From Wolbachia endosymbiont of Litomosoides sigmodontis (GTDB lineage: Bacteria; Pseudomonadota; Alphaproteobacteria; Rickettsiales; Anaplasmataceae), in assembly GCF_013365435.1 (NCBI RefSeq), contig NZ_CP046577.1:900001-932000 (forward strand): a stretch of 32,000 nt of DNA, given 5' to 3'. The position numbers were made by a program, and so were the translations under genes. Shown here piece by piece: positions 4,037-26,914 of this stretch; position 1 is the first letter of the stretch, and each line of letters begins with the position of its first letter. Under the pieces are notes generated by a model, which saw only the letters and a program-made list of their open reading frames with translations, searched no databases and was not told the origin of the DNA.

Positions 4037-4296
4037 AGAAACATCTCCAAAATAAAATCAATTGTCATTACATAGAGCTAAAATATAAGCTATTAAAATT
4101 AAAAAAGCATTAATTTCGTCACTAGATGACCTTTTTGGTTTAACTTCCTAGACTAATCAAGCAGCTAGACCTGTCTTAAGTAGACCCAAAAAATATTTTC
4201 TCTCCCTAAGCATGATACTTAATCAAGTATATATTTACACTTGAGAAATAGCTAATTCTAAACTTAATATAGTGTAATACCATACATAATAGCTCA

Positions 4297-5447
4297 TAAT
4301 AATTATCGTTGTTAATAGATTAAATTAAGTAACATTATAGAATTGTTTAACTGCAGAACAAGATAGAGAGAGATAATATATTTGTATACGCCTTCTCAAG
4401 TAAAGCAATTCTATTATTGCTTTTAATTATGCAGGATGTTCTGTTTTATATACGACCAAAATCTTGCAATAAATTGAGTTCAGTGAATATGATGACAGGT
4501 ACGTAATCTTAATATTTTCAGATATCTTGCAAATTTTTTGACTTATATTAACTAGCACAATCCATGATAAGAGATATGCTAACGTGCTAATACTAACTTC
4601 ATATTAATTAAGGCTCATCATATTTTTAAATATTGCAACGTTTGTTTATAGAGATACATTCATACAATCAGTGTTGATATATCCAGTACAAATAAGTTAA
4701 AGCTCTTTCCATTTTTTAGGATCACTGCACTGTAGAGATAAAAGTTTTTTTGTCTAGCTAATTCTAATTTAACTTATGCTCTAACGCCATTTTCAAATCA
4801 CCCGTATCTAACTTTTGAATGTACGCCAAATCTCAATTCATCAAAGATGAGTAACTTTTATTCATAGATGCTTACCAATAGCCTTATTAAATTTTCATTT
4901 TAACTCTTCCTGTCTACCTTTATCTTGCTCATTGTAGATTGATCTTGGCATAACACATGAAAATTTCATTTTTTTGCTTATCACGGTATATTATAAACTT
5001 GCTAGCATTCAAGCTAAATTGTCCCAAGTTCTTATCCTTATTTTTTAAACAAAAATGCTATGATTTTCTTGTACACATGCCTCAACTTGTTCAAATTAAC
5101 TCCGATTTAATCTAGTTTTTCTACAACGTTAAGTATGAAGTAAACAACTTTTCTTCCCTTCTAAACTCCAGGTGCTTTTCTATGTAGTTAATACATATCA
5201 TTGAAATGCAATATATTTTTGCTATGGCTGTTATACAGTGCTTTTTGCTACAATTACAGCATTCAGTTTTTTTGCAACATATGTGTTATTTCATACTTTT
5301 TTCAACATTCCTTTTACTGATTTCACAACTTTTTTACCAATAATTTTAATTTCACACCATTTAAATCTTGCTATTTTACTTACTTCAGTAAGGCTTCTTT
5401 TCCACTCTTGGCTATCCGCTCCTTAATACATTAAGAATTTGATATAA
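4297..5447 (-). mobile_element. IS630-family element, full-length but degenerate (transposase pseudogene)
   Basis: It aligns end to end with the other copies. The right-end TIR lies at about 4297 and the left end (..GGAGCGGATAGCC.., reverse complement) at about 5447. Multiple stops and frameshifts are present. The supplied ORF 5238-5426 (+) is antisense to the HTH-coding part. Confidence 0.8.
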
Positions 5448-5459
5448 GTACCCTGAATT

Positions 5460-6016
5460 ATAGAGTTATTTCCCTTTGATAAATCGCGATTTGATACACG
5501 TTCAAAAGTTGAACATTGGTGACTTTAAAATGGCATTAGAACACAGATTGCAGTAAAATTAAGTAGATAAAAACTTTTATCTCTACAGTGCAGTTAATCC
5601 TAAGAAATGGAAAGAGCTTTAGCTTATTTGTACTGGATATATTAACACTGATTGTATGAATGTATCTCTTAAACAAACGTTGCAATATTTAAAAATATGA
5701 TGAGCCTTAATTAATATGAAATTAGTATTAGCACGTTAGCATAACTTATCATGGATTGTGCTAGTTAATATAAGTCAAAAAATTTAAAATTACCTAAAAA
5801 TATTGAGACTATATACCTACCACTATACTCAGAACTCAATTTTATTGAGAGATTTTGGTTGTACATAAAACAGAACATCCTGCATAATAAAGTCTATAAC
5901 ACAATTGCTTTCTTTGAGAAGGCTGTATACCAATTTATTACCTCTTTACCTCTTGCTCCGCAATCAAATAACTCTACAATGTTACTTATTTAACCACTAA
6001 CAATATGAAGATTCGT
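5460..6016 (+). mobile_element. IS630-family element, 3' ~560 bp only (5'-truncated)
   Basis: It starts in the middle of the element (..TTGATAAATCGCGATTTGATACACGTTCAAAAGTTGAAC..) and runs to the right end (..AACCACTAACAATATGAAGATTCGTAT). It is an inverted repeat of 4297-4850. Confidence 0.8.
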
Positions 6017-6354
6017 ATCACTACTTATTTTCTATATTGCTAGGTTTTTAAGTCTTAAATGCTGTAATCTAGCTGCTTTCTAATGTAACTTATTGGGGCT
6101 ATAAATATTTTTAAATTTACTAAGCAAAAAAAACACTAAAATAGTAAATTATTAACTCTCTGTTTTAAAAACTTAAAATTATATAATATTTTAAACGTTT
6201 CAGCTTATATAGGTAAAAACTTAGAAAGTTTATAAAGACATAAGATATAAATAGTACAAAGAATTAAACAACAGTACACCAAATATAAGGCCTTCTTACC
6301 ATTTTAACCTGCTAAGATTGGAAAGTTATATAAAACAACTTCAATACTATGCTT

Positions 6355-6386
6355 AAAAAGCTACAAAGTATGTCAAGTAGCTTTTT
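6355..6386 (+). terminator. Candidate hairpin/terminator between the upstream IS and guaB copy 1
   Basis: There is a perfect 10-bp stem, AAAAAGCTAC(12 nt)GTAGCTTTTT, running into a T-rich tail. It is conserved in the second unit with a C->T change that still allows G-U pairing. The stem is AT-rich and therefore weak. Confidence 0.3.
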
Positions 6387-6480
6387 GCATTTCTGTGAAC
6401 TACTCTTAAATAACCGATAACTCTATGCACAAAGCCTGCTCTTATTGTCCTATATCCTGTAATCATACACTCAGCTAATT

Positions 6481-6520
6481 TTGCAATGCCCTATTGCAAT
6501 TTACTTAATTGACGTATAAG
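6481..6520 (+). promoter_or_regulatory. Candidate guaB promoter/operator region (copy 1)
   Basis: Two palindromic TTGCAA hexamers (6481-6486, 6494-6499) are followed 15 nt later by TATAAG (6515-6520), 26 nt upstream of the ATG. The region lies within the 100% conserved leader shared by both guaB units. This is motif inspection only. Confidence 0.3.
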
Positions 6521-6545
6521 CTTTAAATAAAGCCTATGAAAAAAA

Positions 6546-8036
6546 ATGAAAGCTTGTTATTCATTTGACGATATACTCCTTTTACCAGCTTATTCTAATA
6601 TATTGCCTTGTGACGCAGATACAAAAACTTATTTAACAAATAGTATAGAACTCAACATCCCTCTGATATCTTCTGCAATGGATACTGTCACTGAATCAGA
6701 TTTTGCAATAGCTATTGCACAACATGGTGGAATAGGTTGCATACATAAAAACTTATCAATAGATGAGCAAGCTTCAGAAGTAAGGAGAGTAAAAAAATAC
6801 GAAAGTTGGATCGTATACAACCCAATCACAATTTCCCCGGACAAAACAGTTGCAGAAGCAATTTCATTGATGAAAGAGCATGATTATTCTTGTATTCCTG
6901 TAGTTGAGCAATGCAAGTTAGTCGGAATTTTAACTAACAAAGATATAAGATTTATTGAAGATCAGAACATGAGTACAAAAGTCTCTGAGGTAATGACAAA
7001 AGAGAAATTAGTTACAGTACGGGAGCAGGGGATAGACAGCACTTCAGCAATGAAACTCCTGCATGAAAACAGGATAGAGAAGCTTTTGGTCATAGATGAA
7101 AACTTCTGCTGCATAGGTCTGATCACAGCTAAAGACATTAAAGAATACAATAGATACCCCAATTCATGCAAAGATAGTAAAGGGCGGCTCAGAGTTGCCG
7201 CTGCAGTTGGCACTGGTAAAAAAGATGGTATAGAAAGATGTGAAGCTTTGATCAGAGAAGAGATTGACGTGATTATTGTAGATACTGCTCACGGTCATTC
7301 CGAAAATGTTATTAATACTATTAAAGAAATAAAAACAATGTATCCAAGTACGCAGCTAGTTGCTGGAAATATTACAACAAAAGAAGCTGCTGAAGCATTG
7401 ATTAACGCTGGTGCTGATGCAGTAAAGGTTGGGGTAGGGCCTGGATCAATTTGTACAACTAGAATAGTTACAGGTGTGGGTGTTCCACAATTTTCTGCAA
7501 TCCAAAGCGTTGCAGAAACATGTAAAACAAGAAAAGTAAGGTTAATTGCTGATGGTGGAGTGAAATACTCAGGAGATATTGCAAAAGCTATTGCAGCTGG
7601 TGCTGATTCCGTAATGATAGGTGCAATTTTTGCTGGTACTAATGAAAGTCCAGGTGAGATTATCATGTATAAAGGTAGAGCATATAAAAGTTATCGAGGA
7701 ATGGGGTCTATCAGTGCAATGAAACGAGGTTCTGCTAGCCGTTATTTTCAAGATAAAGATCCAAAACTCAAATTAGTTCCACAAGGAGTGGAAGGAAGAG
7801 TGCCATTCAAAGGTCCAGCTTCAGGAGTAATTCATCAATTAATTGGTGGGTTACAAGCTGCAATGGGGTATACCGGTAATAGAAATATAGAAGAGATGAA
7901 AGAAAACTGTAAGTTTACAGTTATGACTGCATCAGGATTAAGAGAAAGCCATGTTCATGACATAACTATCACACAGGAATCTCCAAATTATGTTTATCAA
8001 GTGTCCAACAACTTGTCAATTGATTCAGACGTCTAA
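6546..8036 (+). CDS. guaB: IMP dehydrogenase, copy 1
   Basis: The 496-aa ORF starts with SFDDILLLPAYS and has a CBS pair (residues ~95-205). The catalytic Cys loop GVGPGSICTTR, GGVKYSGDIAKA and YRGMGS are all present. Confidence 0.97.
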   Translation: MKACYSFDDILLLPAYSNILPCDADTKTYLTNSIELNIPLISSAMDTVTESDFAIAIAQHGGIGCIHKNLSIDEQASEVRRVKKYESWIVYNPITISPDKTVAEAISLMKEHDYSCIPVVEQCKLVGILTNKDIRFIEDQNMSTKVSEVMTKEKLVTVREQGIDSTSAMKLLHENRIEKLLVIDENFCCIGLITAKDIKEYNRYPNSCKDSKGRLRVAAAVGTGKKDGIERCEALIREEIDVIIVDTAHGHSENVINTIKEIKTMYPSTQLVAGNITTKEAAEALINAGADAVKVGVGPGSICTTRIVTGVGVPQFSAIQSVAETCKTRKVRLIADGGVKYSGDIAKAIAAGADSVMIGAIFAGTNESPGEIIMYKGRAYKSYRGMGSISAMKRGSASRYFQDKDPKLKLVPQGVEGRVPFKGPASGVIHQLIGGLQAAMGYTGNRNIEEMKENCKFTVMTASGLRESHVHDITITQESPNYVYQVSNNLSIDSDV

Positions 8037-8267
8037 TTATTAATTGTCAATTAATACAGTAAAAGTAAATAGGTAAAGCAGAGGTTTTTGCACTAATATA
8101 AAAGTCCCTGCTATAGTTAAAAATGCATTAGCTTTTAGTTTGTTAAGTTATAATACACATTTGTTAATCTATGTAATTTATATTAGACCTGTGCTTGCTG
8201 TACATCTTGCTACATCTACCGCATCATCAATTATCCTTCACCATCTTCTGCTCTATCTTCATTTATA

Positions 8268-9485
8268 ATACCAATTTCTACCATATAAAGAACGGATAGA
8301 CAATAATGAACAAGAAGTCTTCTGAAGCAAGTAAAGTAGCGAGGGTAAAATGGCGTTGAAATCAAAATTTTTGGATAAAAAGTCGTGTAGTCAGCAAAAG
8401 AAATGTTAAAAAAGTGCGAAATGACGTATATGTTACAAAAAATTAAATGCTGTAATTGTAGCAAAAAAGCATAATATATAACAGCCATAGCAAAAACATG
8501 TTGTTCTTCGAGAACAGCATTACTACATAAATAAAGCTCTAAAATTTAGAAGAGAAATAAAATTGTTTACTCTCTGCTTAATGTCATAAAAAAAACTAGA
8601 TTAAATCAGAGTTAATTTGAACAAGTTAAAGATAGATACAAGAAAATCCTAATATTGCCATTCAAGAAAAAAGAAGAAACTTGAGCGCTTGTCTGTAATA
8701 CAGTATAGTAATTACTCTGAGCAGTATAGCACGGACAATACCATTATAAGAAAATACGATATTAGGGATATAGTAAGAATAATAATCCAGAAAAAATTTG
8801 GCTTGAATGTCAGCAAGACTACAGCACATTGTAATATGTAAAAATGAAATTCCAGTATACTATGCCAAGATTAATTTACAAAGAACAAGATAAAAGGTAG
8901 ATAGGAAGAGTTTAAAAAACTTAATAAAGTTATTGATAAGTATCTATGAACAAAAGTTACTCATCTTTGATGAATTGGTTTGGTATACATTTAAAGTTGG
9001 ACACAGTGATTTAAAAAAGACGTTAGAACACAGATTAAAGTAAAATTAGGTAGACAAAAAATTCTTATCTTTACAGAGTAGAAAGTTCTAGTTTATTTGC
9101 AATGAATGCCAACATTTATTATATGAATATATTTCTTGAATAAATGTTACAATATTCAAGAACACAAAAAGCTTTATTAATATAAAATTAATATTAGCAC
9201 GTTAGCACATCTTATCATAAATTGTGCTAGTTAGCATAAGTCAAAAAATTTAAAGGTACCCCAAAATATTAAGATTATATACCTACCACATATATTTACC
9301 AGAGCTCAGTCTCCTTGAGAGACTTTAGTTGTATATAAAACAAAATGTTTTGTATAATAAAGCCTATAATAGAATAACTTTATTTGAAAGCTCTTTGTAC
9401 AAATTTATCATCTCTCTTTCTCACTTTGCAATCAAACAATTCTGCAACGCCACCTATTGATACACAACATATAAGGATTTGTATC
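8268..9485 (+). mobile_element. IS630-family element, longest copy, degenerate (transposase pseudogene)
   Basis: The left end ATACCAATTTCTACCATATAAAGAACGGATAG resembles the reverse complement of the right end (imperfect TIR). The N-terminal HTH peptide MALKSKFLDKK.. breaks off after a few codons. The central block reads ..LEHRLKVKLGRQK.LIFTE... The 3' block reads ..NIKIIYLP../..PELSLLERL*LYIKQNVL.. in shifted frames. That is a decayed version of the IS630/Tc1-mariner LPPYSPELNPIERLW motif carrying the catalytic E. Confidence 0.85.
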
Positions 9486-9849
9486 ACTACGCATGAAAGA
9501 ACTAAGGACACAGCTCTTTATTTCCTGTATTAGCAGAGTTTTTAAGTCTTAAATGCTGCAGTTTAGCTGTTTTTAAATTTAATTAATTGGGGCTATGAAT
9601 ATTTAAAAAACTTACTAAGTAAAAAAATATCAGAGTAGTGGATTACTAATCCTCTATTTTAAAAACTTAATGTTGAGAATGTCTTAAACACCTCAGCTTA
9701 TATTTAGGTAAAAATTTAGAAATTTTATAAAGACATAAAATACAAATAGTACAAAAAATTAAACAACAGTCACCAAATATAAGGCCTTCTTATCATTTTA
9801 ACCTACTAAAATTAGAAAGTTATATAAAACAACTTCAATACTATGCTTG

Positions 9850-9880
9850 AAAAGCTATAAAGTATGTCAAGTAGCTTTTT
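9850..9880 (+). terminator. Candidate hairpin/terminator upstream of guaB copy 2 (homologue of 6355-6386)
   Basis: AAAAGCTAT(12 nt)GTAGCTTTTT occupies the same position relative to guaB as the copy-1 hairpin. Confidence 0.3.
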
Positions 9881-9975
9881 GCATTCCTGTGAAATTATTC
9901 TTAAATAACCGATAACTCTATGCACAAAGCCTGCTCTTATTGTCCTATATCCTGTAATCATACACTCAGCTAATT

Positions 9976-10015
9976 TTGCAATGCCCTATTGCAATTTACT
10001 TAATTGACGTATAAG
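9976..10015 (+). promoter_or_regulatory. Candidate guaB promoter/operator region (copy 2)
   Basis: Identical in sequence to 6481-6520. Confidence 0.3.
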
Positions 10016-10040
10016 CTTTAAATAAAGCCTATGAAAAAAA

Positions 10041-11531
10041 ATGAAAGCTTGTTATTCATTTGACGATATACTCCTTTTACCAGCTTATTCTAATATATTG
10101 CCTTGTGACGCAGATACAAAAACTTATTTAACAAATAGTATAGAACTCAACATCCCTCTGATATCTTCTGCAATGGATACTGTCACTGAATCAGATTTTG
10201 CAATAGCTATTGCACAACATGGTGGAATAGGTTGCATACATAAAAACTTATCAATAGATGAGCAAGCTTCAGAAGTAAGGAGAGTAAAAAAATACGAAAG
10301 TTGGATCGTATACAACCCAATCACAATTTCCCCGGACAAAACAGTTGCAGAAGCAATTTCATTGATGAAAGAGCATGATTATTCTTGTATTCCTGTAGTT
10401 GAGCAATGCAAGTTAGTCGGAATTTTAACTAACAAAGATATAAGATTTATTGAAAATCAGAACATGAGTACAAAAGTCTCTGAGGTAATGACAAAAGAGA
10501 AATTAGTTACAGTACGGGAGCAGGGGATAGACAGCACTTCAGCAATGAAACTCCTGCATGAAAACAGGATAGAGAAGCTTTTGGTCATAGATGAAAACTT
10601 CTGCTGCATAGGTCTGATCACAGCTAAAGACATTAAAGAATACAATAGATACCCCAATTCATGCAAAGATAGTAAAGGGCGGCTCAGAGTTGCCGCTGCA
10701 GTTGGCACTGGTAAAAAAGATGGTATAGAAAGATGTGAAGCTTTGATCAGAGAAGAGATTGACGTGATTATTGTAGATACTGCTCACGGTCATTCCGAAA
10801 ATGTTATTAATACTATTAAAGAAATAAAAACAATGTATCCAAGTACGCAGCTAGTTGCTGGAAATATTACAACAAAAGAAGCTGCTGAAGCGTTGATTAA
10901 CGCTGGTGCTGATGCAGTAAAGGTTGGGGTAGGGCCTGGATCAATTTGTACAACTAGAATAGTTACAGGTGTGGGTGTTCCACAATTTTCTGCAATCCAA
11001 AGCGTTGCAGAGACATGTAAAACAAGAAAAGTAAGGTTAATTGCTGATGGTGGAGTGAAATACTCAGGAGATATTGCAAAAGCTATTGCAGCTGGTGCTG
11101 ATTCCGTGATGATAGGTGCAATTTTTGCTGGTACTAATGAAAGTCCAGGTGAGATTATCATGTATAAAGGTAGAGCATATAAAAGTTATCGAGGAATGGG
11201 GTCTATCAGTGCAATGAAACGAGGTTCTGCTAGCCGTTATTTTCAAGATAAAGATCCAAAACTCAAATTAGTTCCACAAGGAGTGGAAGGAAGAGTGCCA
11301 TTCAAAGGTCCAGCTTCAGGAGTAATTCATCAATTAATTGGTGGGTTACAAGCTGCAATGGGGTATACCGGTAATAGAAATATAGAAGAGATGAAGAAAA
11401 ATTGTAAGTTTACAGTTATGACTGCATCAGGATTAAGAGAAAGCCATGTTCATGACATAACTATCACACAGGAATCTCCAAATTATGTTTATCAAGTATC
11501 CAACAACTTGTCAAGTGATTCAGACATCTAA
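10041..11531 (+). CDS. guaB: IMP dehydrogenase, copy 2
   Basis: A 496-aa ORF with 10 nucleotide differences from copy 1, giving D139N, E453K, I492S and V496I plus 6 synonymous changes. All catalytic motifs are intact. Confidence 0.97.
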   Translation: MKACYSFDDILLLPAYSNILPCDADTKTYLTNSIELNIPLISSAMDTVTESDFAIAIAQHGGIGCIHKNLSIDEQASEVRRVKKYESWIVYNPITISPDKTVAEAISLMKEHDYSCIPVVEQCKLVGILTNKDIRFIENQNMSTKVSEVMTKEKLVTVREQGIDSTSAMKLLHENRIEKLLVIDENFCCIGLITAKDIKEYNRYPNSCKDSKGRLRVAAAVGTGKKDGIERCEALIREEIDVIIVDTAHGHSENVINTIKEIKTMYPSTQLVAGNITTKEAAEALINAGADAVKVGVGPGSICTTRIVTGVGVPQFSAIQSVAETCKTRKVRLIADGGVKYSGDIAKAIAAGADSVMIGAIFAGTNESPGEIIMYKGRAYKSYRGMGSISAMKRGSASRYFQDKDPKLKLVPQGVEGRVPFKGPASGVIHQLIGGLQAAMGYTGNRNIEEMKKNCKFTVMTASGLRESHVHDITITQESPNYVYQVSNNLSSDSDI

Positions 11532-11767
11532 TTGTTAATTGCCAGCTAATACAGTAAAAGTAAACAGGATAAAGCAGAAATTTTTGCACTAATACAAAAG
11601 TCCCTGCTGTAGTTAAAAATGCATTATTCCTTAATTTGTCAAGTTATAATGCACGTTTGTTGATCTATGTAATATATATTATACCTGTACTTGCCTGTAC
11701 ATCCTACTACATCTACCCCGCATCATTATCAATTACCCACCTTCACCATCTTCTGCTCTATCTTCAT

Positions 11768-12425
11768 TATAAGACCAATTTCTACTATATAAAGAACGGA
11801 TAGACAATAATGAACAAGATAAAGGTAGACAGGAAGAGTTTAAAAAATTTAATGAGGCTATATTGGTAAGTGTCTATGAATAAGAGTTACTTTTCTTTGA
11901 TGAATTGAGGTTTGGTATACATTCAAAATTGGACACAGATGATTTAAAAAGGACTTAGAACACAGGTTAAAGTAAAATTAGGTAGACAAAAAAATTCTTA
12001 TCTCTACAGTGCAGTAGATTCTAGCAGTGAAGAAAGTTCTAGTTTATTTGTAATGAATACCAAGATTTATTATATGAATATATTTCTTGAACAAATGTCA
12101 CAATATTAAAGAACATGAGAAGCTTTATTAATATAAAATTAATATTAGCATGTTAGCCTGTCTTATCAGGAATTATACTAGCTAGTATAAGTCAAAAAAT
12201 TTAAAGGTACCTAAAAATATTGAAATTATATATTCACCAGAACTCAGTCCTTTTGAGAGACTTTAGTTGTATATAAAATAAAATGTTTTGTGTAATAAAG
12301 TCTATAATAGAATTGCTTTACTTGAGAGTTCTTTGTACAAATTTATTATCTCTCTTCCTCATTTCGCAATCAAACAATTCTGCAACGTCACTTATTTGAC
12401 CTACAAACAAAGAGAATTAATATAA
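11768..12425 (+). mobile_element. IS630-family element with a ~570-bp internal deletion
   Basis: Both ends are present: left ..TATAAGACCAATTTCTACTATATAAAGAACGGATAG and right ..GACCTACAAACAAAGAGAATTAATATA. The sequence jumps from ..AATGAACAAGA directly to TAAAGGTAGACAGG, which is the equivalent of 8315->8891 in the full copy. Confidence 0.8.
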
Positions 12426-12647
12426 GTTTTTGTGATTGCAAACATTAAAGACATCAGGTCAGAAACTACTCTTCTACTTCATTGAAAAGTGTTTTACACG
12501 AACTAGAATAGCTTTTGTAAAGTCAAGGTGATTTCAACTTCTTCAATTGCAGTTTCATCTATAAATTAGGACAGTTCTTTTAAAGATTCATCCTTTATGA
12601 AATATTTTGTCATAAAATAAACCCATTAAGTTTTAACAATAGGCGTT

Positions 12648-12684
12648 TATGCTAATGTACTAATATTAGCTTTATATTAATAAA
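12648..12684 (-). mobile_element. Short isolated fragment of the same IS family
   Basis: TATGCTAATGTACTAATATTAGCTTTATATTAATAAA matches the minus-orientation internal IS segment (compare 4585-4625 and 14355-14390) at about 34 of 38 positions by eye. Confidence 0.45.
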
Positions 12685-12967
12685 AATATAAAATTACTTT
12701 CATGAGTAATTTTGTTACATAGCTAATTTGGAGCAAATAAAAAAGCGACCAGAATATACAATTATTACATATTTTATTATAAAACGAACATCCTAACTAT
12801 ACACATGTTATAAAATAGTAGTCAGCACAGCTAATTTACGTTTGACCCCACATTAACAATATTTTTATTATTATATGAGATAAGTAGACTAGTACTTATA
12901 AATTCATACCATGTTACACATAGTTCAGGAGAGTAAAATTTATTGGCTACGCACTGGAATAATATAA

Positions 12968-13795
12968 ATGTGCAACCTAGATACTGCAACACTTAGACCT
13001 GTACTTGCTTATATATTATTAATTTGCGCCACAATCTTATTAAGAGTTTCTACTGTTCATGCTAACGAAAATTTGGAGATACAAAAAGCCTTTGATAGCG
13101 TCGCTAAGCATATAAAAGCCGACAAAAAATATAAAGACCTTGATGTTATTGAGAGAAAGAGTGACAAATTTAATATCAAAATTTCACAAAACCCAAGCAA
13201 AAGCTTTAGCATGCACTCTATCTTAGAAAAGGTAAAGGATTCCTTTAAGTCAGGAGATAGTAAAACAGCTATCTCTCTTCTTAATCAAGTTATTGCAAAA
13301 TTTGCTCATCATAAAAATGCTTTAATTTGGCTAGGAAACATTTATTATGCTAACAAAGAATATAAAAGAGCTATAGAAATATGGATAAAACTTTTAAAAG
13401 AAAATCCTGATAATTCTTACATACTAGAAAACTTTCTAACAATAATTTCACAGTATAATCCTAATCTAGCATTAAATGAAATGTTAAAATTGTATGATAT
13501 ACAAAAAAAATTTACTCCTTTGTTAGCAAACTTAGGTCTAATCTATATGAAAAAGGAAAATTATATAAAAGCCAAAGAATATATGGTAACTGCAATTTCC
13601 TTTGATCAAAATAATATTTTTTATATCTATAATCTAGCTATCATTCTAGACAAACTATCAGATTTCAAAAATGCTGCAATAGCTTACTCAAAATTACTGA
13701 ATATGGCTGTAAATTTGAAGAATGTGAGCAAGATAATCCCCATAGGCAAGGTAGAAACAAGACTAAAATTTATAAAACTTCACAACATGGACTAA
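12968..13795 (+). CDS. Secreted/periplasmic tetratricopeptide-repeat protein
   Basis: The 275-aa ORF has an N-terminal signal-like segment, LRPVLAYILLICATILLRVSTVHA. TPR-type repeats are visible: ALIWLGNIYYANKEYKRAIEIWIKLLKENPDN, and ANLGLIYMKKENYIKAKEYMVTAISFDQNN..YNLAIILDKLSDFKNAAIAYSKLL. Confidence 0.75.
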   Translation: MCNLDTATLRPVLAYILLICATILLRVSTVHANENLEIQKAFDSVAKHIKADKKYKDLDVIERKSDKFNIKISQNPSKSFSMHSILEKVKDSFKSGDSKTAISLLNQVIAKFAHHKNALIWLGNIYYANKEYKRAIEIWIKLLKENPDNSYILENFLTIISQYNPNLALNEMLKLYDIQKKFTPLLANLGLIYMKKENYIKAKEYMVTAISFDQNNIFYIYNLAIILDKLSDFKNAAIAYSKLLNMAVNLKNVSKIIPIGKVETRLKFIKLHNMD

Positions 13796-13972
13796 ACGAT
13801 TTTATGAAAGCTTGTGATCTAATATTATTTCAGTTATCTGAACTAATTTACTGAGTATAAGATAGCTGCGTACTCAACTAGTCACAACACCACCTAATTT
13901 TAGGAAAAATCAACCACTCTAAGATAATATATTTCCAAGAATATAGAATAAAAGGCGAGGTATAATCAATGA

Positions 13973-14082
13973 ATGAGTATCAAAAGCGACCTATTAATTC
14001 AAGCTACTAAATATAACAATAAAGAAATTGTAAAACTTACTCTAGTACTCTTCAGTACATTAGATAAACTCTTTTCATCTGT
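13973..14082 (+). pseudogene. Possible ankyrin-repeat gene stub truncated by IS insertion
   Basis: My translation from ATG 13973 gives MSIKSDLLIQATKYNNKEIVKLTLVLFSTLDKLFSS, which runs straight into the IS terminus at 14083. LLIQATKYNNKEIVKL resembles the ANK consensus L..A...GN.EIVKLLL. The match is short and weak. Confidence 0.25.
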
Positions 14083-15203
14083 AATACTAATTCTCATTGT
14101 AGTAAGTCAAATAAGTGACGTTGCAGAATTATTTGATTGCTGAGTAAGAAAGAGAGATAATAAATTTGTACAAAGAGTTCTCAAGTAAAGCAATTCTATT
14201 ATAGACTTTATTACACAAAACATTTTATTTTATATACAACTAAAGTCTCTCAAAAGGACTGAGCTCTGGTAAGTATATGTGGTGGATATATAATTTCAAT
14301 ATTTTTAGGTACCTTTAAATCTTTGAATCATGCTAACCAGCACAATTTATGATAAAATATGCTAATATTAATTTTATATTAATAAAGCTTCTCGTATTCT
14401 TAAATATTGTAACATTTGTTCAAGAAATATATTCATATAATAAATGTTGGCATTCATTGCAAATAAACTAGAACTTTCTCCGCTGCCAGAATTAGCTATA
14501 CTGTAGAGATAAGAATTTTGTCTACCTAATTTCACTTTTAACCTGTGTTCTAACATCCCTTTTAAATCATCTGTGTCCAATTTTTGAATATATACCAAAC
14601 CTCAATTCATTAAAGAAAAATAACTCTTGTTCATAGGCACTTACCAATAGCTTTGTTAAATTTTTAAACTCTTCCCGTCTACCTTTATCTTGCTCGTTGT
14701 AAATTGGTCTTGGCGTAGTATACAGAAACTTCATTTTTACATATTACAATGTGCTGTAGTCTTGCTGACATTCAAGCCAAATTTTTCTCTGGATTATTAT
14801 TCTTATTTCTTAAATGGCAATATTAAGGTTTTCTTGTATTTATATTTCAACTTATTCAAATTGACTCTGATTCAATCTAGATTGGGCAGAGAGTAAATAA
14901 CCTTTCTCCTTTTCTAAATTTTAGAGCTTTATTCATGTAGTCAATACTGTTCTCGAAGTACAACACGCTTTTGCTACGGCTCTGTTATATTGTACTTTTT
15001 TTGTTGCAATTACAGCATTTAATTTTTTTGTAATATATATGTCATTTCGCACTTTCTTTAACATTTCTTTTGCTGATTTCACGACTTTTTCATTCAATAA
15101 TTTTAATTTCAATGCCATTTGAACCTCGCAATTTTACTTACTCCAGTAAGACTTCCTGTCTATTATTGTTCACACATTCCTTGTGCATTGGGAATTAGTA
15201 TTA
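14083..15203 (-). mobile_element. IS630-family element, near full-length, degenerate
   Basis: The right-end TIR TAATACTAATTCTCATTGTAGTAAGTCAAATAAGTGA is at 14083 and the left end at about 15203. Supplied ORFs 14933-15118 (HTH: MALKLKLLNEKVVKSAKEMLKKVRNDIYITKKLNAVIATKK..) and 14374-14598 (..LEHRLKVKLGRQNSYLYSIANSGSGES..MNIFLEQM..) are transposase fragments in different frames. Confidence 0.85.
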
Positions 15204-15210
15204 GCTGCAC

Positions 15211-15238
15211 AGTCCCAGTGTTAAGCACTTGTATGACA
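15211..15238. repeat. Fragment resembling a Rickettsiales/Wolbachia-type palindromic repeat
   Basis: AGTCCCAGTGTTAAGCACTTGTATGACA contains a decayed CCAGTG..CACTGG hairpin. It is about 64% identical by eye to the second half of the hemH insertion (GATTCCAGCATCATGCACAGGAATGACA). Confidence 0.3.
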
Positions 15239-15297
15239 CCAAGTGTGATAGCCAACACTTTTTATGTAAGCCGTGTAGTCATGCAAGAAGTCTATCA

Positions 15298-16728
15298 TTA
15301 AAAAATCAAAAGCCTAACGATTAGGCCTATAATTATAGACCACAGTAAAAAGTAAATTTTTCCATTTGATTTATTCTTAACTTGAATATTCTCTAGTTTC
15401 TGATTAGCTATTAGGTTTAATTTTTCTACAAGACTAAAAATCTCTTGAATTGTTCTTAAGGAACAAGAGTTTTTTATTTTCTCTTTATAGCTTATTTTAC
15501 GTTTATGTTGATTTTCTGTCCATGCTTCAACCACCTTCCACATATTAATTTTGGGGTAGATTTTTCTACAAGTTCCCTCTAGCAAAATCATAGTTTTTTG
15601 TAGAAGTAATAATTGTGTTTGAACTTCCATATCAAAATCATCAGTTATTTTTAATAATTGAGCAAGTAAATTAGCAAAAGAAATTTTCTGTATAGGCTGT
15701 CCTATAATAGGTTCACCTATTGCTCTGCACGCCGTAATAAAACTTTTATGCTGCGGTGAAACATAGCCAGCTCTAAAGTGCACTTTTGCAACTCGATCAT
15801 AATCTCGATTCAAAAAACCTTTCAGTATTTCTATTACATAGTAACATGTTTCTCGATCTATTCTACCCATAATCCCACAATCTAAAGCAATAATATTGTT
15901 GTTACTATCAATCATTAGATTGCCAGGATGCATATCCGCGTGAAAGAAACAATCTCTGTATACTTGGTTGCAAAACGACTCTATAAGATTAATAGCTATT
16001 TGCTTATGATTATTTAGTTTTTCAACCTCATATATTGGTGTAGCCTCTATCCACTCCAGTGTTAGAACCCTCTTTGAAGTTCTACTCCAATCTACTTTAG
16101 GAACATAAAAACCTCTGTCATTTTTTGTATTTTCTCTAAGCTCTGAAGAGTGAGCAGCTTCAAAACGTAGATCTAGCTCTAATCGGCAAATTTCAGCAAA
16201 AGTTTCAACTAACTTGATTGGTTTCAGCCTCCTTGATTGCTTGCTAAATTTTCCTGTAATTCCTGCAAGCCAAAAAAGCATTTTGATATCTTTTGAGAAC
16301 GTTTTTTCAATATTTGGCCTTAAAACTTTTACAGCAACTTCTTTACCTTCTGTTGTAATTGCCTTATAAACCTGAGAAATTGACGCTGCTGCAATTGGCT
16401 TCTCAGAAAAACTTGAAAAAACATCACCCAACTTACAATTAAATTCGCTCTCTATAGTTTTAATTGCTATTTTGTGTGAAAAAGAAGGTAATCTATCACA
16501 TATCAACAACAAGTTATTCGTTATATCCTCATTTAAAATATCAGTACGTGATGAGATAGACTGCCCAAATTTAATAAACACCGGACCTAATTTCTCAAGA
16601 GCGCATTTTAGTCTATAGCCCTGTATTTTATTTATTGACTTCCTTGACGGAGAAAGTAAATAAGGTGATATGTTATACTGAGTTAGTACTACAGTTATAT
16701 ACAAAAGGCGCAGAATATTTTGAATCAT
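15298..16728 (-). CDS. ubiB: UbiB/ABC1-family atypical kinase (ubiquinone biosynthesis regulator)
   Basis: The 476-aa ORF contains LGPVFIKFGQSISSRTDIL, PIAAASISQVYKA..G.EVAVKVLRP, FFHADMHPGNL and a C-terminal TM segment. Its start overlaps the znuC stop (ATGA at 16725-16728). Confidence 0.9.
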   Translation of the reverse strand: MIQNILRLLYITVVLTQYNISPYLLSPSRKSINKIQGYRLKCALEKLGPVFIKFGQSISSRTDILNEDITNNLLLICDRLPSFSHKIAIKTIESEFNCKLGDVFSSFSEKPIAAASISQVYKAITTEGKEVAVKVLRPNIEKTFSKDIKMLFWLAGITGKFSKQSRRLKPIKLVETFAEICRLELDLRFEAAHSSELRENTKNDRGFYVPKVDWSRTSKRVLTLEWIEATPIYEVEKLNNHKQIAINLIESFCNQVYRDCFFHADMHPGNLMIDSNNNIIALDCGIMGRIDRETCYYVIEILKGFLNRDYDRVAKVHFRAGYVSPQHKSFITACRAIGEPIIGQPIQKISFANLLAQLLKITDDFDMEVQTQLLLLQKTMILLEGTCRKIYPKINMWKVVEAWTENQHKRKISYKEKIKNSCSLRTIQEIFSLVEKLNLIANQKLENIQVKNKSNGKIYFLLWSIIIGLIVRLLIF

Positions 16729-17465
16729 TTCGCTATGTAATTGCTAAATATCTCACTTAGAGTTTTGCCCTCCATAATTTTATCGGGCTTACCTTGGCAA
16801 TAGATAGTACGATTTATACAAATAATATAATCTGAACATGGTACAATGGAACTTAAATCATGAGATGTCATAAGGATCGAAATTAATCTGTTTTTTGCTA
16901 TTTTCCCTATAATATCATAAAACTTAGCACGCGCGTTAATGTCCATTGCACTAACAGGCTCATCTAGAATAATCAAGTCAGGCTCTGCAATTAAACAGTG
17001 TGCAAGCAGTAATAATTGCATCTGTCCTGCGGAAATTTCTAATACCTGATTTTTTAAAATATCACCAATACCAACCAAATCTATCACTTCCGTAATAAAA
17101 GATTGACTTTTCTTTATTTTTTTTGAAAAACTATTTAAAAGGAAATATTTAACTGTTATTGGCATTAAATGGCTAATGCTAAAATTTTGTGGCATATAGC
17201 TAATTTTTATATTAGCAGCAAATATAATATTACCTGTATAATTCTTATTTATGCCAGCAACTACCTTCATCAAAGAAGTTTTACCGCCACCATTTGGGCC
17301 AAGTATAGTAACTACATCTCCTTTTTCTATTGATATGTTAATATCATTGAGAACCTTTTTATTATCATATGCAAGAGCAAGATTTTCTATTTTTAGTACA
17401 CTATTATTGACATCATTTAACTTTTTGACAAAATTTAAATTTTTCTCTACGCTTTCATGAGACAT
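16725..17465 (-). CDS. znuC: Zinc/metal ABC transporter ATP-binding protein
   Basis: The 246-aa ORF has Walker A GPNGGGKTS, a signature-like ISAGQMQ, Walker B LIILDEP and H-loop TSHDL. It sits next to a ZnuA/TroA-type binding-protein gene. Confidence 0.85.
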   Translation of the reverse strand: MSHESVEKNLNFVKKLNDVNNSVLKIENLALAYDNKKVLNDINISIEKGDVVTILGPNGGGKTSLMKVVAGINKNYTGNIIFAANIKISYMPQNFSISHLMPITVKYFLLNSFSKKIKKSQSFITEVIDLVGIGDILKNQVLEISAGQMQLLLLAHCLIAEPDLIILDEPVSAMDINARAKFYDIIGKIAKNRLISILMTSHDLSSIVPCSDYIICINRTIYCQGKPDKIMEGKTLSEIFSNYIAK

Positions 17466-18353
17466 TTACTAGCTTTTTTTCTATTACTTTTATTTACACT
17501 ATACTATAATATCGCTCTTTCATCCAATTTAAAAATTGTAGCCACAATAAAGCCTATACATTCACTTGTAGCCTCTGTCACAGATGGAATTTTAAAACCT
17601 AACTTGCTTACTTACATAACATCTGCACACGATCATATATTAAAGCCATCTGACGCGAGTAACTTAGAATCAAGCGATGTTATATTCTACATTGGTGGTA
17701 ACTTAGAAACATTTATTAAAACTTTTACTAAGGGCAAAAAAGAACTTGTGCAGTTGTCAAAAACAATCAATTTACTTCCTGTCAGACCACACTCATTTTC
17801 TAAAAGAATCATCCATACTCAAAATGCAAAAGACCTACACATTTGGCTAAGTCCTGAAAATGCAAAGAGTATGATACTTTCTATAAGTGAAACACTATCC
17901 AACATAGATAAGGAGAACGCTTCCAGGTATAACTACAATGCATTAAAAGCTATACAAGAAATAAATCAAGTAGCAGAAAAAATTACGAGAGGACTGAATG
18001 ATTTTAAAAGTCAAAAATACATAGTCACTCATGATGCTTATCAATATTTTGAAAAATATTTCGGCTTAAATCACCCAAGTGTTATTCTCTCTATAGAAGA
18101 GGACTCTTATATAGGCATGAAAAGCTTAATGAAGCTAAAAAAGGTTATGGAAAAAGAAAACATTAAATGTATATTTTCTCATTCACCAGAAGATAGTATA
18201 AAACCTAAAATCCTTTCCAAGGATGCAAAAATGGTAATCCTTGACCCTATTGGGTCAAATATAGAACCTGGAAAAGATGCATATCTTACTATAATCAACG
18301 AGATTACGCAAAATTTCAAATCCTGTTTTACTGAATATCATCAAAAATCATAG
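17457..18353 (+). CDS. znuA: Metal (Zn/Mn) ABC transporter substrate-binding protein, ZnuA/TroA family
   Basis: The 298-aa ORF starts with the signal peptide MRHLLAFFLLLLFTLYYNIALS. The cluster-9 SBP metal-ligand blocks are present: PIHSL, HDHILKPSD, HIWLSP and THDAYQYF. There is no His-rich loop, so metal specificity is uncertain. Confidence 0.8.
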   Translation: MRHLLAFFLLLLFTLYYNIALSSNLKIVATIKPIHSLVASVTDGILKPNLLTYITSAHDHILKPSDASNLESSDVIFYIGGNLETFIKTFTKGKKELVQLSKTINLLPVRPHSFSKRIIHTQNAKDLHIWLSPENAKSMILSISETLSNIDKENASRYNYNALKAIQEINQVAEKITRGLNDFKSQKYIVTHDAYQYFEKYFGLNHPSVILSIEEDSYIGMKSLMKLKKVMEKENIKCIFSHSPEDSIKPKILSKDAKMVILDPIGSNIEPGKDAYLTIINEITQNFKSCFTEYHQKS

Positions 18354-18383
18354 TAAAATTTAGCTATGTTAGTAAATCTGAAG

Positions 18384-18815
18384 CTATACTAATTCACACT
18401 CAGCAAAAAAGAAAGCTATTTCCTTATGAGCACTTTCTAAACTATCAGAACCGTGAACTCTATTTTCATTAATGTCACCAGCAAAGTCACCTCTGATTGT
18501 ACTCTTATCTGCCTGCTTTGGATCTGTAGCTCCCATGATTTGTCTGTATCTACTAACTGCATTTTCACCAACTAAAACTTGAACTACTACAGGACCAGAA
18601 ATCATAAATTCTATCAATCCTCCAAAAAAAGGTCTATCTTTATGAATCGCATAAAACAGTTCTGCTTGTTTTTTTGTTAATAATATCATCTTTTGTGCTA
18701 TTATCCTTAATCCGGATTTTTCGATATAGGAATTTATATTACCTGTAATATTATTTTTTACCGTATCAGGTTTTAATATAGAAAGTGTCCTCTCAATTAC
18801 CATACTGCCTTGCAT
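18384..18815 (-). CDS. ndk: Nucleoside diphosphate kinase
   Basis: The ORF contains [10 protein letters not shown], the active-site NRVHGSDS and a typical length. The real start is probably M5 (18803), which gives MVIERTLS. Confidence 0.95.
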
Positions 18816-18901
18816 AAAATTACATACTCATATATTTATCTTATTGTAAATTCCGGTTTCATAAAAGTAGTTTTTTCTTTATAGTTAAGAATAAATCATC
18901 A

Positions 18902-19666
18902 ATGGAGTATTGTATGGGTTACTGTCGTAAAAAATTAGCAAACAACCTTAAGTCACCAATTTTTTGCGGGGTAAAAGGGTTTTTGACTTTTAGTTTGGCC
19001 TTTTTAAGTTATTTGGAATATAGCTCATGTCGCAATACAAAATTACAAAAAGATGCTACTTTTACAATGAAAAGAAATACTATTCCATTTTTTGAAATAA
19101 TAATCATAGCACCACTCACCTGCTTTATATTATTAGCTATAGCAGGTAATATAAGCTTCACGCTATGCACATCTATATGTGCTGCATTGATGATTGCCAC
19201 ATGTTTTGTCATAAGAACTTTTAATCTGCGCGAGAAATTGCTAGAAAAGATCACTAACCATAGCAAAAAAGAAATAGATGAAGAATTTAAGAAGGATTCT
19301 ATAAAATTTCCTATTTTTGATCAGAGTAGAAAACACATTGAGTATAATTCACCCAACCAAGAACAATTGTTAAATAAAACAGGCAGCACCTCTTTTTTTG
19401 TTACTTTTTTAATTTTTCCTTTAAAGCTTCTTCAAAGCTGTATAATGCTATCTTTAGCCGCTATTGAACTTCTTGAAACAGTGCCGAGTCTTTGTGTTGA
19501 TTTAGTTTTCAATAGAAATTCTTTTGCATCTATAAAAAGCAACTTACAAAGATCTGGTCATTTATTATATGCTAGTGTAAGAAATTTAGTGCCCATATCT
19601 ATACTTGATGAGTGTGTAGCTGATTTTATAGGCGTACCAAAGGCAATTTGTTGCAGTAGTGCGTAG
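18902..19666 (+). CDS. Hypothetical membrane protein (orphan), translationally coupled to hemH
   Basis: The 254-aa ORF has hydrophobic segments IPFFEIIIIAPLTCFILLAIAGNISFTLCTSICAALMIATCFVI and SFFVTFLIFPLKLLQSCIMLSLAAIELL. Its TAG (19664-19666) directly abuts the hemH GTG (19667). I recognise no family. Confidence 0.5.
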   Translation: MEYCMGYCRKKLANNLKSPIFCGVKGFLTFSLAFLSYLEYSSCRNTKLQKDATFTMKRNTIPFFEIIIIAPLTCFILLAIAGNISFTLCTSICAALMIATCFVIRTFNLREKLLEKITNHSKKEIDEEFKKDSIKFPIFDQSRKHIEYNSPNQEQLLNKTGSTSFFVTFLIFPLKLLQSCIMLSLAAIELLETVPSLCVDLVFNRNSFASIKSNLQRSGHLLYASVRNLVPISILDECVADFIGVPKAICCSSA

Positions 19667-20689
19667 GTGAAAAAGGCAGTTGTCTTACTTAACCTTGGCG
19701 GACCTGACTCACCAAATGCAGTCCGTCCTTTTTTATTTAATCTTTTTTATGATAAGAGAATAATTAATTTGCCAAATCCTTTTCGGTTCCTTTTAGCAAA
19801 ATTTATATCCGCAAAACGAGAAAATACTGCACGAAGAATATATGAACAAATTGGAGGTAAATCGCCAATTTTAGAAAACACAAAAATGCAAGCTGAAGCA
19901 CTTGAGCGAGAGCTTAATAGATCTGTTATTTATCATCCAAGCAGCGTAACACTTAGGTCTAGAAAAGAAAATTGGATTCCAGCATCATGCACAGGAATGA
20001 CATCAAAACTGACCAAAGTTTTTATCTGCATGCGCTACTGGCATCCACTTGCTGATGAAGCTGTTAAAAGTGTAAAGCAGTTCGGTCCTGATGAAGTAAT
20101 TCTGCTACCGCTATATCCACAATATTCAACTACTACAACTTTGTCATCTATCGAAAATTGGCAAAAAAATGCTAAACAATATGGCATAAAATGCAATACA
20201 AAAATAATCCGCCACCATTATGATAACCAAGATTTTATTGAGGCCCACGCTAACTTAACAATTAAACACTATAAATTAGCTAGCGAAGTTGGCAAACCAA
20301 GAATCTTATTTTCAGCACATAGCCTACCTCTCAGTATTATTAAAAAAGGCGATCCTTATGCCTTACAGGTAGAAGAAACAGTAAAATTGATAGTAAAAAA
20401 ATTAAACATTAAAGACCTTGACTGGTCAATATGCTATCAGAGCAAGATAGGCCCCATAAAATGGTTAGAACCAAGCACTGAAAGCGAATTATTACGCGCA
20501 AAAGCTGATGGTGTACCTGTAGTTTTATCACCAATATCTTTTGTATCTGAGCATTCAGAAACGCTCGTTGAACTTGACATGGAATATAAGACTATTATCA
20601 AGGATGGATACTACTTTCGCATACCAACCCTTAGTACTAATTCCTTATTTATTAAGTGTTTAGCTGGTTTATGTATAAATCACCCTTAA
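19667..20689 (+). CDS. hemH: Ferrochelatase
   Basis: The 340-aa ORF (GTG start) contains [49 protein letters not shown] and [14 protein letters not shown]. It carries an extra ~25-30 aa segment at residues ~85-116. Confidence 0.92.
19934..20002 (+). repeat. In-frame palindromic-repeat-like insertion inside hemH
   Basis: The segment encodes [23 protein letters not shown]. It resembles the translated form (..SSQCLTLGSRKK.WIPVSSTGMT..) of a dispersed Wolbachia/Rickettsiales hairpin repeat as I remember it. Rickettsia and E. coli ferrochelatases have no counterpart at this position. Confidence 0.5.
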
Positions 20690-20765
20690 AGTCCTGACTT
20701 ATAGCGCTTTTCTTTTAGGATTTCATATGATAGAATGATAAAAAATATTATTTTATCAGCTATTT

Positions 20766-21626
20766 ATGCCGAACAAGATAATAAGAGAATCAAATATGCC
20801 CGTACAAACAATACATAGGCTGCATAGTCATTGCATCAGGAAGATAATTTATATTACAACAGCTTTAACAATGTTGCTGTGTAAGATTTCGCTACAATTT
20901 TGCTGTGAGTTTATTAACAATAATAGATCAAATATCACCTTTATAAGGGATGTTGCAAAGCTAATAAAATTGCCAGCATCCATATTATATACTCTCCATT
21001 TAGGACTCAATTTAGCTGGATACAAATCTAAAAGTAAATTAGTTCATAAAGATAAACCCAAAGAACTAGCAGAGTTTATAGGTGAATTAGCCCCATTGAT
21101 AAGCAGCATCATAGGAGTGTTAATACAGACGAAAATCATTCATTTATTTGCTGCAGGTGCAGTTAGTCATGTGGGACTTGCATCAACAATGCTATTTCTA
21201 TTCATTTCAGAACCTATAAGTTACTATTATACATACAGACAATATCAAGAAGCATATAAAAAATACCAAGACGCAAGCAAAGGATGTCAAGGTAAAAAGG
21301 ATATTGATGAACTTATAAAATATAAAGCTGAGCTTACTAAATGCAATAAGGACTTCATTACTAGTACATTAACTTTATCATTAGGTTTATTAAATTTCAT
21401 ATTAAAAAGGGTAGAAATTGCAACCATACCGATAAATTTGGGTAACGATATAATCTATAATTTCAATTGGAGCGTAACAGTCAGCATAATATATAGTACA
21501 GTATTTCTAGCAATCCAGCTTAATAAACTGTTTAATCAGCCTATCAACGATAATCCTTCTACTAAACTTAGTGGTACTATTAATCATAATCATAACCTAT
21601 ACAATGGCTGCACTATGTGGGGGTAG
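20766..21626 (+). CDS. Hypothetical multi-pass membrane protein (orphan)
   Basis: The 286-aa ORF has at least 4 hydrophobic segments: IIYITTALTMLLC, LAPLISSIIGVLIQ..LFAAGAVSHVGLASTMLFLFI, TLTLSLGLLNFIL and VTVSIIYSTVFLAIQL. A K/E-rich central loop is present. I recognise no family. M11 is an alternative start. Confidence 0.5.
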   Translation: MPNKIIRESNMPVQTIHRLHSHCIRKIIYITTALTMLLCKISLQFCCEFINNNRSNITFIRDVAKLIKLPASILYTLHLGLNLAGYKSKSKLVHKDKPKELAEFIGELAPLISSIIGVLIQTKIIHLFAAGAVSHVGLASTMLFLFISEPISYYYTYRQYQEAYKKYQDASKGCQGKKDIDELIKYKAELTKCNKDFITSTLTLSLGLLNFILKRVEIATIPINLGNDIIYNFNWSVTVSIIYSTVFLAIQLNKLFNQPINDNPSTKLSGTINHNHNLYNGCTMWG

Positions 21627-21629
21627 GAA

Positions 21630-22796: not shown

Positions 22797-22891
22797 TTTA
22801 AATATTATAAGGAAGGTACTATATTATAAGCTATAGCTAAACATATTTAATTAACGATTACGGTATAATGAAATTGCTATTTTAAAGTGAC

Positions 22892-23452: not shown

Positions 23453-23453
23453 T

Positions 23454-26619: not shown

Positions 26620-26914
26620 TTTGGCAAGAATTAGCATAAGATTTTCCCTGAAGAGATCTACATACAAAAGGCCTTTGAACCTAAAAAATTACCAAGATCT
26701 CACATATATAATGCCCATACTGTTAAAAATGCTTTTGTACTATTTTATCTATTTCTTCTAAATATTTATCACTAGAGTTACTTGTATTACAAGACCTATT
26801 TATAAAATATAAAATTCTTAAATATTTTATTAATCTCAGCTCTGTACCTAGCTTAGTTACCTACTTAACTGAGACTTTAGCTCCCTTTCTTCAATTCTAT
26901 GTTTTTTAACATTA

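Follow-up and report, generated by a model that had tools for sequence, protein, structure and literature searches.

A tandem guaB array between dead insertion sequences in the Wolbachia of Litomosoides sigmodontis: evidence for an old unequal crossover and for gene conversion of the duplicated core

We describe here a tandem array of guaB, the gene for inosine monophosphate (IMP) dehydrogenase, in the Wolbachia endosymbiont of Litomosoides sigmodontis (wLsig, supergroup D). The array lies within a 32,000-nucleotide stretch of the chromosome (NZ_CP046577.1, positions 900,001 to 932,000; the whole of this stretch is referred to as the window) and has the layout IS-guaB-IS-guaB-IS, in which each insertion sequence (IS) is a degraded copy of one repeat family. 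All of its parts lie at the positions originally predicted, and the ORF (open reading frame) list and self-BLAST agree on two full guaB ORFs, their coordinates, and spacers of 529, 231, 555, and 236 bp; the small, eroding host genome that was pictured is likewise borne out by the 1.05 Mb of wLsig. The duplicated unit is 3.5 kb, and self-BLAST pairs 5474-8315 with 8965-11819 (E=0), so that the array is not a chance resemblance. Features are listed below by position in the window, and the corresponding locus of the sister strain wLbra is numbered as L002.

4285..5425, minus strand: predicted IS630-family copy A, degraded and inverted, directly upstream of the array and outside the duplicated unit (self-BLAST).
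5462..6016, plus strand: predicted IS630-family 3' remnant B1, ~550 bp, the putative left recombination substrate; orthologue of wLbra L002 8948-9460.
6017..6545, plus strand: left spacer of unit 1 (529 bp), with a diverged outer part, 6017-6397 (K=0.174 to unit 2).
6546..8036, plus strand: guaB copy 1, IMP dehydrogenase, 496 aa, QKX03227.1 (ORF, Pfam, GenBank).
6404..7900, plus strand: homogenised tract of unit 1, a probable gene-conversion tract; its partner in unit 2 runs from 9899 to about 11395.
8037..8267, plus strand: right spacer of unit 1 (231 bp; K=0.123 to unit 2).
8268..9490, plus strand: junction IS (C), a near full-length, dead, predicted IS630-family copy that appears recombinant (diagnostic sites, terminus comparison).
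9491..10040, plus strand: left spacer of unit 2 (555 bp as originally delimited; alignment to unit 1 and wLbra).
10041..11531, plus strand: guaB copy 2, IMP dehydrogenase, 496 aa, QKX03228.1 (ORF, Pfam, GenBank).
11532..11767, plus strand: right spacer of unit 2 (236 bp; alignment).
11768..12425, plus strand: third IS (D), orthologue of the full right IS of wLbra, L002 11724-12820.

Copy A contains no ORF of at least 80 aa within 4285-5425 and has a counterpart in the same arrangement in wLbra (L002 8014-8943). The 3' terminus of B1, ...GTATCACTAC, is common to the left remnant of wLbra and to the end of the junction IS. The left spacer of unit 2 opens with a 27-bp insertion (9491-9517) that is without counterpart in unit 1 or wLbra. 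The inner 142 bp of the unit 1 left spacer (6404-6545) are identical to those of unit 2, and presumably include the promoter and ribosome-binding site of guaB. Across the entire window neither the Rfam nor the tRNA scan returned a match, and thus no riboswitch or RNA gene is seen in the spacers. The flanks had been described as homologous between the two units, and this holds, but they are merely 83-88% identical. Immediately 3' of the third IS is a gene for a TPR protein (12968-13795) that has no match to the DNA before the array, in keeping with the proposal that sequence past this IS is unrelated.

The two guaB copies differ at 10 of 1491 nucleotides by alignment, exactly the number of distinguishing single-nucleotide polymorphisms (SNPs) originally counted, with four consequent amino acid changes (D139N, E453K, I492S, and V496I). 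In the order copy 1/copy 2, the differences fall at 6960/10455, 7397/10892, 7517/11012, 7613/11108, 7901-7907/11396-11402, 8003/11498, 8020/11515, and 8031/11526. The product matches PF00478 (IMPDH) over residues 5-471 and profile positions 2-345 of 345 (E=5e-156), contains an inserted CBS (Bateman) pair recognised as two stretches of PF00571 (E=2.6e-19), and is 84-90% identical to annotated Wolbachia IMP dehydrogenases. The GSICTT catalytic Cys loop (residue 300) and the SRYFQ Arg-Tyr flap motif (residue 398) are present in both copies, and each has a single, terminal stop and no frameshift; Pfam and motif reading therefore agree with the original prediction that both copies are full-length, with the catalytic loop and CBS pair intact.

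Catalytic-motif residues are invariant across both wLsig copies and the two wLbra protein-cluster entries. These two entries had raised the suspicion of a second guaB in wLbra, but they represent the same gene with the start called three residues longer. We also note that in both wLsig copies an upstream ATG followed by a run of seven A residues (6536-6545 and 10031-10040) is out of frame with guaB. In wLbra a six-A run (L002 about 9992-10000) puts the upstream ATG in frame, and it is because of this that wLbra GuaB is annotated three residues longer (MKKMKAC...). The A-homopolymer falls inside the homogenised tract.

QKX03227.1 and QKX03228.1 are already annotated as adjacent IMP dehydrogenase genes in GenBank. 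Exact-protein look-up finds the copy 2 product only on OY365737.1 (GCA_959347385.1), a chromosome of 1,045,802 bp, and gives no match for the copy 1 product. The KEGG Orthology (KO) table of the genome paper (PMC8116671) lists only one guaB locus, wLs20_04940, and as a consequence the duplication is invisible in the pathway comparison of that paper, the text of which never mentions guaB. In the literature on guaB duplication in Wolbachia and on IMP dehydrogenase in L. sigmodontis, we found the array described nowhere, and no expression data.

The gene order in wLbra is rho, TrcR, an IS on the minus strand, a partial IS on the plus strand (L002 8948-9460), a single guaB (10001-11488), a full IS on the plus strand (11724-12820), the TPR gene, an IS on the minus strand, and ubiB, and the two genomes are collinear between 11809-21129 of the window and L002 12198-21488. 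A read-level wLbra contig from Logan is 100% identical to L002 over both spacers, indicating a single version of the flanks. One guaB is likewise found within ±10 kb in each of 17 other loci (16 Wolbachia or Wolbachia-like, and one Anaplasma-like), a set that leaves out the supergroup D outgroups wBm, wBp, and wWb and polarises the IS bracket no further than wLbra. The original prediction called for comparison of the locus with related strains, and wLbra has a single IS-bracketed guaB. This comparison indicates that the ancestor had one guaB between a left IS630-family 3' remnant and a full right copy in the same orientation, as wLbra does.

The nature of the junction IS suggests how the second unit could have arisen. 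In an alignment of three wLsig and two wLbra IS copies, we defined diagnostic sites as those at which left-type and right-type copies differ, right-type being the state of the third IS and of the wLbra right IS. Up to 9418 the junction IS has the right-type state at 20 of 22 such sites, and it is left-type at all three of the remaining ones (9476, 9481, and 9490), which include the terminus shared with B1, placing the switch between 9418 and 9476. Because wLbra has an IS-bracketed single guaB and the junction IS is a hybrid, these observations support an IS-mediated unequal crossover within the last ~60 bp of the IS copies, which would have turned the ancestral layout into remnant-guaB-hybrid IS-guaB-IS. 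This is in good accord with the earlier proposal of unequal homologous recombination between direct IS copies that flanked one guaB, since wLbra keeps that layout.

The hybrid also bears on whether the array is an assembly artefact or chimera, in which the second unit is a collapsed or expanded repeat, comes from another symbiont haplotype, or derives from Wolbachia DNA inserted in the nuclear genome of the worm and joined to the chromosome. The use of PCR-enriched LEFT-SEQ CCS (circular consensus sequence) reads gives this explanation some substance. However, the junction IS is hybrid exactly as a real crossover predicts and there are distinct indels, and a false duplicate would be identical bar random errors, not 12-17% diverged in its flanks around a perfect core. 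A flank divergence of 15% between two haplotypes is implausible in a clonal, vertically inherited symbiont, and a nuclear insertion could not undergo conversion with the bacterial copy, yet 113 derived sites are common to the two cores. We regard an artefact of any of these kinds as extremely improbable.

Identity along the duplicated unit is uneven, being 100% from about 6404 to about 7900 and dropping to 70-85% on both sides; like copy A, the internal deletion of the third IS, and the pseudogene state of every IS copy, this unevenness was not part of the original prediction. In the left spacer the non-coding divergence K is 0.174 between units 1 and 2, and 0.19-0.22 between either unit and wLbra; the corresponding right-spacer values are 0.123 and 0.10-0.15. 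IS copies C and D are 86% identical to each other, and either is 82% identical to the wLbra right IS. Because the divergence between units in flanks and IS copies nearly reaches that between wLsig and wLbra, the duplication is old, with an age some 75-95% that of the wLsig/wLbra split. The spacers and IS copies have since diverged by 12-17%, unit 2 has gained its 27 bp, and the third IS has lost 575 bp. This internal deletion lies between two 8-bp GAACAAGA direct repeats, which are present at 8308 and 8883 in the junction IS and once, at 11812, in D, and it is attributed to microhomology.

These values contradict the suggestion that the locus is an amplification caught in transit, given that flanks differing by K of about 0.12-0.17 imply an array nearly as old as the split. 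The idea that the copies are alike because they are young draws on the small number of differences within guaB (only 10 in 1491 nt), and on the precedent of repeat-flanked amplifications such as Octomom, which are unstable and recent (PMC4323108). A young 3.5-kb unit would nonetheless be uniformly identical, whereas the flanks within this one differ by 12-17% with several indels, and IS copies C and D differ by 14% in addition to the 575-bp deletion and a 97-bp insertion; a recent origin is in our view scarcely credible.

The opposite possibility is that the duplication is older than the wLsig/wLbra split and that wLbra returned to one copy through recombination between units. The site patterns in the flanks are close to a trichotomy (36/33/22 on the left and 13/17/8 on the right), and in the right spacer the K between units is about equal to that between a unit and wLbra, both of which would be compatible with a pre-split event. 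The left-spacer K, however, is lower between units than between either unit and wLbra, C and D resemble each other more than either resembles the wLbra right IS, and that IS is full-length, as in the inferred ancestor. A pre-split duplication also predicts that the left flank of wLbra should resemble unit 1 and the right flank unit 2, but wLbra is slightly nearer to unit 2 on both sides. We consider this order of events improbable, and favor a duplication within the wLsig lineage.

The core of the unit behaves quite differently from its flanks. The synonymous divergence (dS) of guaB is 0.0185 between copies 1 and 2 and 0.28 relative to wLbra (Fisher p=2e-13), and the 148 bp upstream of the start contain two differences between the copies (both before 6404) and 20 from wLbra. 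Within 6398-8036 there are 113 sites at which both copies agree against wLbra and 11 private sites, whereas the flank site patterns given above are near star-like. Variable sites that separate the copies make up 4 of 105 inside 6404-7900 and 93 of 154 outside, and the longest shared run spans 41 variable sites, whereas none of 100,000 permutations gave a run above 31 (p≤1e-5), a test conditioned on variable sites such that the coding versus non-coding confound is removed. Because the core is homogenised and the flanks are diverged, the near-identity of the guaB copies is best attributed to gene conversion and not to recent origin, and the alignments indicate that a core of ~1.5 kb, comprising 142 bp upstream and most of guaB, is kept near-identical by concerted evolution of this kind. 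Purifying selection alone was considered as the cause of core identity and was ruled out, as synonymous sites and the 142 bp of non-coding upstream sequence are homogenised too.

The left edge of the tract is sharp (6403/6404), but on the right the transition is gradual, falling between 7613 and 8003, which suggests several overlapping conversion events. Repeated gene conversion, probably of the RecA type, has held the core near-identical, with the outcome that the two copies have more than 90% of the substitutions fixed in the wLsig lineage in common; the latest homogenisation dates to about 7% of the split depth. In the published KO table recA is present for wLsig and blank for wLbra, and ruvA and ruvB are blank for both (PMC8116671).

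Both copies also show signs of continued constraint. The 10 differences between them comprise four nonsynonymous and six synonymous changes (omega 0.19; binomial p=0.010, a test weakened by the transition bias among these changes), and omega for wLsig guaB versus wLbra is 0.07. Polarisation with 14 outgroups assigns seven amino acid and 11 synonymous changes to the wLsig lineage, versus five and three to the wLbra lineage; wLsig guaB thus seems to have evolved faster at both site classes, with no nonsynonymous excess and no sign of relaxed constraint, albeit from small counts. We have considered whether the copies are incipient isozymes under different regulation, for example through D139N in the CBS/Bateman module. 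One of the four replacements does lie in the CBS region, the rest being at residue 453 and in the C-terminal tail, but there are only four, their derived states are split two and two between the copies, no cluster of changes occurs in functional sites, and conversion keeps erasing differences. Functional divergence is accordingly very unlikely.

Why two copies have been kept is a separate question from how they arose. Both wLsig and wLbra lack purB, and provisioning of purines and pyrimidines is a leading hypothesis for the filaria-Wolbachia mutualism (PMC8116671); the absence of purB and this proposed role together make selection on IMP dehydrogenase dosage plausible. In such a scheme both copies would be expressed from their identical upstream regions and would encode functional IMP dehydrogenase, which is the least certain step, and selection for flux from IMP through XMP to GMP would maintain the doubled dosage. 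Taken jointly, expression of both copies and dosage-selected retention is a reading we entertain with slightly more doubt than belief. A larger claim would be that the array, kept functional by conversion, is an adaptive and long-kept rise in dosage for the step that commits a purB-less filarial mutualist to GMP synthesis; we think this rather doubtful.

An alternative to dosage selection is neutral persistence, in which the redundant copy brings no benefit, conversion from the selected copy erases its lesions, and deletion between IS copies has become rare at 14-25% divergence. The conversion tract coincides with the region in which purifying selection slows divergence, so that the process could be self-reinforcing without any dosage advantage, and the flanking IS copies (76-86% identical) are too diverged for efficient recombination; the genome also tolerates junk, with dead IS copies occupying 23% of the window. 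Set against this, neither copy has acquired a frameshift or stop over most of the history of the lineage even though the genome is small and reductive, the differences accumulated after conversion lean synonymous (p=0.010), and the upstream regions of both copies have been held identical. Neutral persistence is a real contender, though on balance an unlikely one. The proposed history, an ancient tandem duplication by crossover followed by conversion, we regard as probable, its final step of expression and dosage-based retention being the least certain.

Several considerations nevertheless weigh against this history. The timing is not cleanly separable from a pre-split duplication followed by loss in wLbra, and the array rests on what is probably one assembly (PacBio CCS/Canu, PMC8116671), the two public records, each 1,045,802 bp long, probably being the same. 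A scan for sigma-70 promoters and terminators gave fewer promoter-like matches than in shuffled sequence, and is thus no guide to expression. wLsig is reported to have lost 5-9 homologous-recombination genes and has no ruvA or ruvB in the KO table (PMC8116671), and this loss fits awkwardly with ongoing conversion, although recA remains. Finally, conversion alone can long preserve a redundant copy, and retention is thus no proof of a dosage benefit.

The IS copies of the array belong to a repeat family that self-BLAST finds throughout the window, at about 775-1058, 4285-5425 (minus strand), 5462-6021, 8266-9487, 11768-12425, 14082-15208 (minus), 25586-26625 (minus), 27147-28242, and 31790-32000. 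These nine degraded copies or fragments amount to 7.3 kb, or 23% of the 32 kb; in wBm, IS coverage is 2.6% with only three IS630 copies (PMC3205602). No ORF in them exceeds about 63 aa, every copy has multiple stops and frameshifts, the IS ends are degraded and recombined, and there is no intact transposase ORF in the window. Translation of the copy at 27147-28243 in one reading frame, with stop codons masked as X, matches PF13358 DDE_3 (34.3 bits against a cut-off of 28.6, E=2.6e-8), and the equivalent translation of the copy at 14082-15208 gave no DDE_3 match. The 5' end AATACCAATTCTTA and the 3' end consensus ...GAGAATTAGTATA (reverse complement TATACTAATTCTC) form terminal inverted repeats that match at ~11/13 positions as read directly from the sequence. 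Because of the DDE_3 match and the terminal inverted repeats, we assign the repeats to the IS630 family, of which they are dead members.

Several other features of these repeats are noted. The junction IS contains an extra segment of ~97 bp (8678-8776) that is not in the wLbra right IS or in other copies of the window. Two inverted, dead IS630 copies 609 nt apart (25602-26608 and 27218-28224) are 99% identical over 1007 nt and have stops in common, against 70-86% for every other IS pair of the window; the likeness points to either a recent inverted duplication or conversion between pseudogenes of the kind described by Cordaux (2009), as that work is cited in PMC3205602, and the pair could form an invertible segment. 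Upstream of the array, a 151-bp patch of copy A (4572-4722) and B1 (5597-5746) has 96-97% complementarity, with the remainder about 84% alike, and resembles a tract of local conversion between IS copies that lie head to head. The guaB left spacers (6072-6414 and 9563-9770) have a ~67% identical paralogue at 31438-31794 on the minus strand, downstream of polA and adjacent to a further IS terminus. Approximately 350 bp outward from the IS end are common to the left spacer and this second locus, and are also found in wLbra (L002 9530-9756); this sequence could belong to a longer composite repeat, or be a site that is preferred for insertion.

Beyond the array the gene content is ordinary. The genes within 12968-24947 include those for the TPR protein, a ubiB-like ABC1 kinase, an ABC ATPase, znuA, ndk, and ferrochelatase, with collinearity to wLbra as far as 21129, where L002 ends. 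Past this point, within 12968-24947 and 28870-31419, are gshA, hslV, hslU, and polA. Pfam gave no match for two ORFs, at 18902-19666 and 20766-21626.

The guaB array can be compared with several known systems. The pathogenic Octomom region of wMelPop is about 21 kb with eight genes, reaches 2-10 copies, and shows instability within a few host generations (Chrostek and Teixeira 2015, PMC4323108). In both cases a Wolbachia segment has been gained in tandem between direct repeats, a gain attributed to non-equal homologous recombination and marked by a novel junction between units. The guaB unit differs in being only 3.5 kb, with one housekeeping gene, exactly two copies, and repeats that are long-dead IS630 remnants, and its flank divergence argues for an array that has probably been stable at two copies for nearly the whole history of the lineage. 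A second parallel is the tufA and tufB pair of Salmonella and E. coli, reportedly the subject of work by Abdulkarim and Hughes in 1996, in which near-identical paralogues with diverged flanks are said to be maintained by a RecA-type mechanism. As in the guaB pair, identity ends close to the gene boundaries, but the tuf genes lie far apart and in inverted orientation, in a free-living host with full recombination machinery, whereas the guaB copies form a direct tandem repeat with a spacing of 3.5 kb, in a reduced endosymbiont from which ruvAB is reported to be absent.

Closer to wLsig, the filarial strain wBm is reported to sustain IS copies that are no longer functional through gene conversion (Cordaux 2009, Mol Biol Evol 26:1679, as cited in PMC3205602). 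wBm is similar in also being a supergroup D obligate mutualist in which all IS copies are dead and intragenomic conversion occurs between repeats; the difference is that the wBm case concerns IS pseudogenes, and the sequence converted in wLsig is a functional metabolic gene. The IS copies beside guaB are mostly not homogenised, the exceptions being the 99% identical inverted pair at 25.6-28.2 kb and the 151-bp patch. In Buchnera, trpEG and leuABCD are reportedly amplified as plasmid-borne or multi-copy tandem arrays, with a provisioning role that is said to have experimental support (as reported by Lai, Baumann, and Baumann, 1994). The likeness is that of an obligate nutritional mutualist with a reduced genome gaining copies of a biosynthetic gene, the product of which the host is presumed to receive, although the wLsig array has two copies and its provisioning role is a hypothesis only.

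The mechanisms involved, repeat-mediated duplication and conversion, are textbook ones, and the general significance of the array is modest. In practical terms it can mislead orthology pipelines and SNP callers. It also indicates that gene conversion has been at work on a housekeeping gene although the genome is reduced and, by report, without ruvAB. Laboratory studies of filariasis use L. sigmodontis as their standard model, in which anti-Wolbachia drugs are tested, and a guaB duplicate that has remained intact and homogenised over most of the wLsig history offers a concrete locus for the nucleotide-provisioning idea, with 10 SNP markers for allele-specific expression. If dosage selection is indeed at work, the array would be a nematode-Wolbachia counterpart of the amplified provisioning genes of Buchnera, kept functional by conversion despite the loss of much of the recombination toolkit. 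IMP dehydrogenase would then be a drug target that is sensitive to dosage in the standard rodent model of filariasis, and the supply of guanine nucleotides would be a currency under selection in the Litomosoides-Wolbachia symbiosis.

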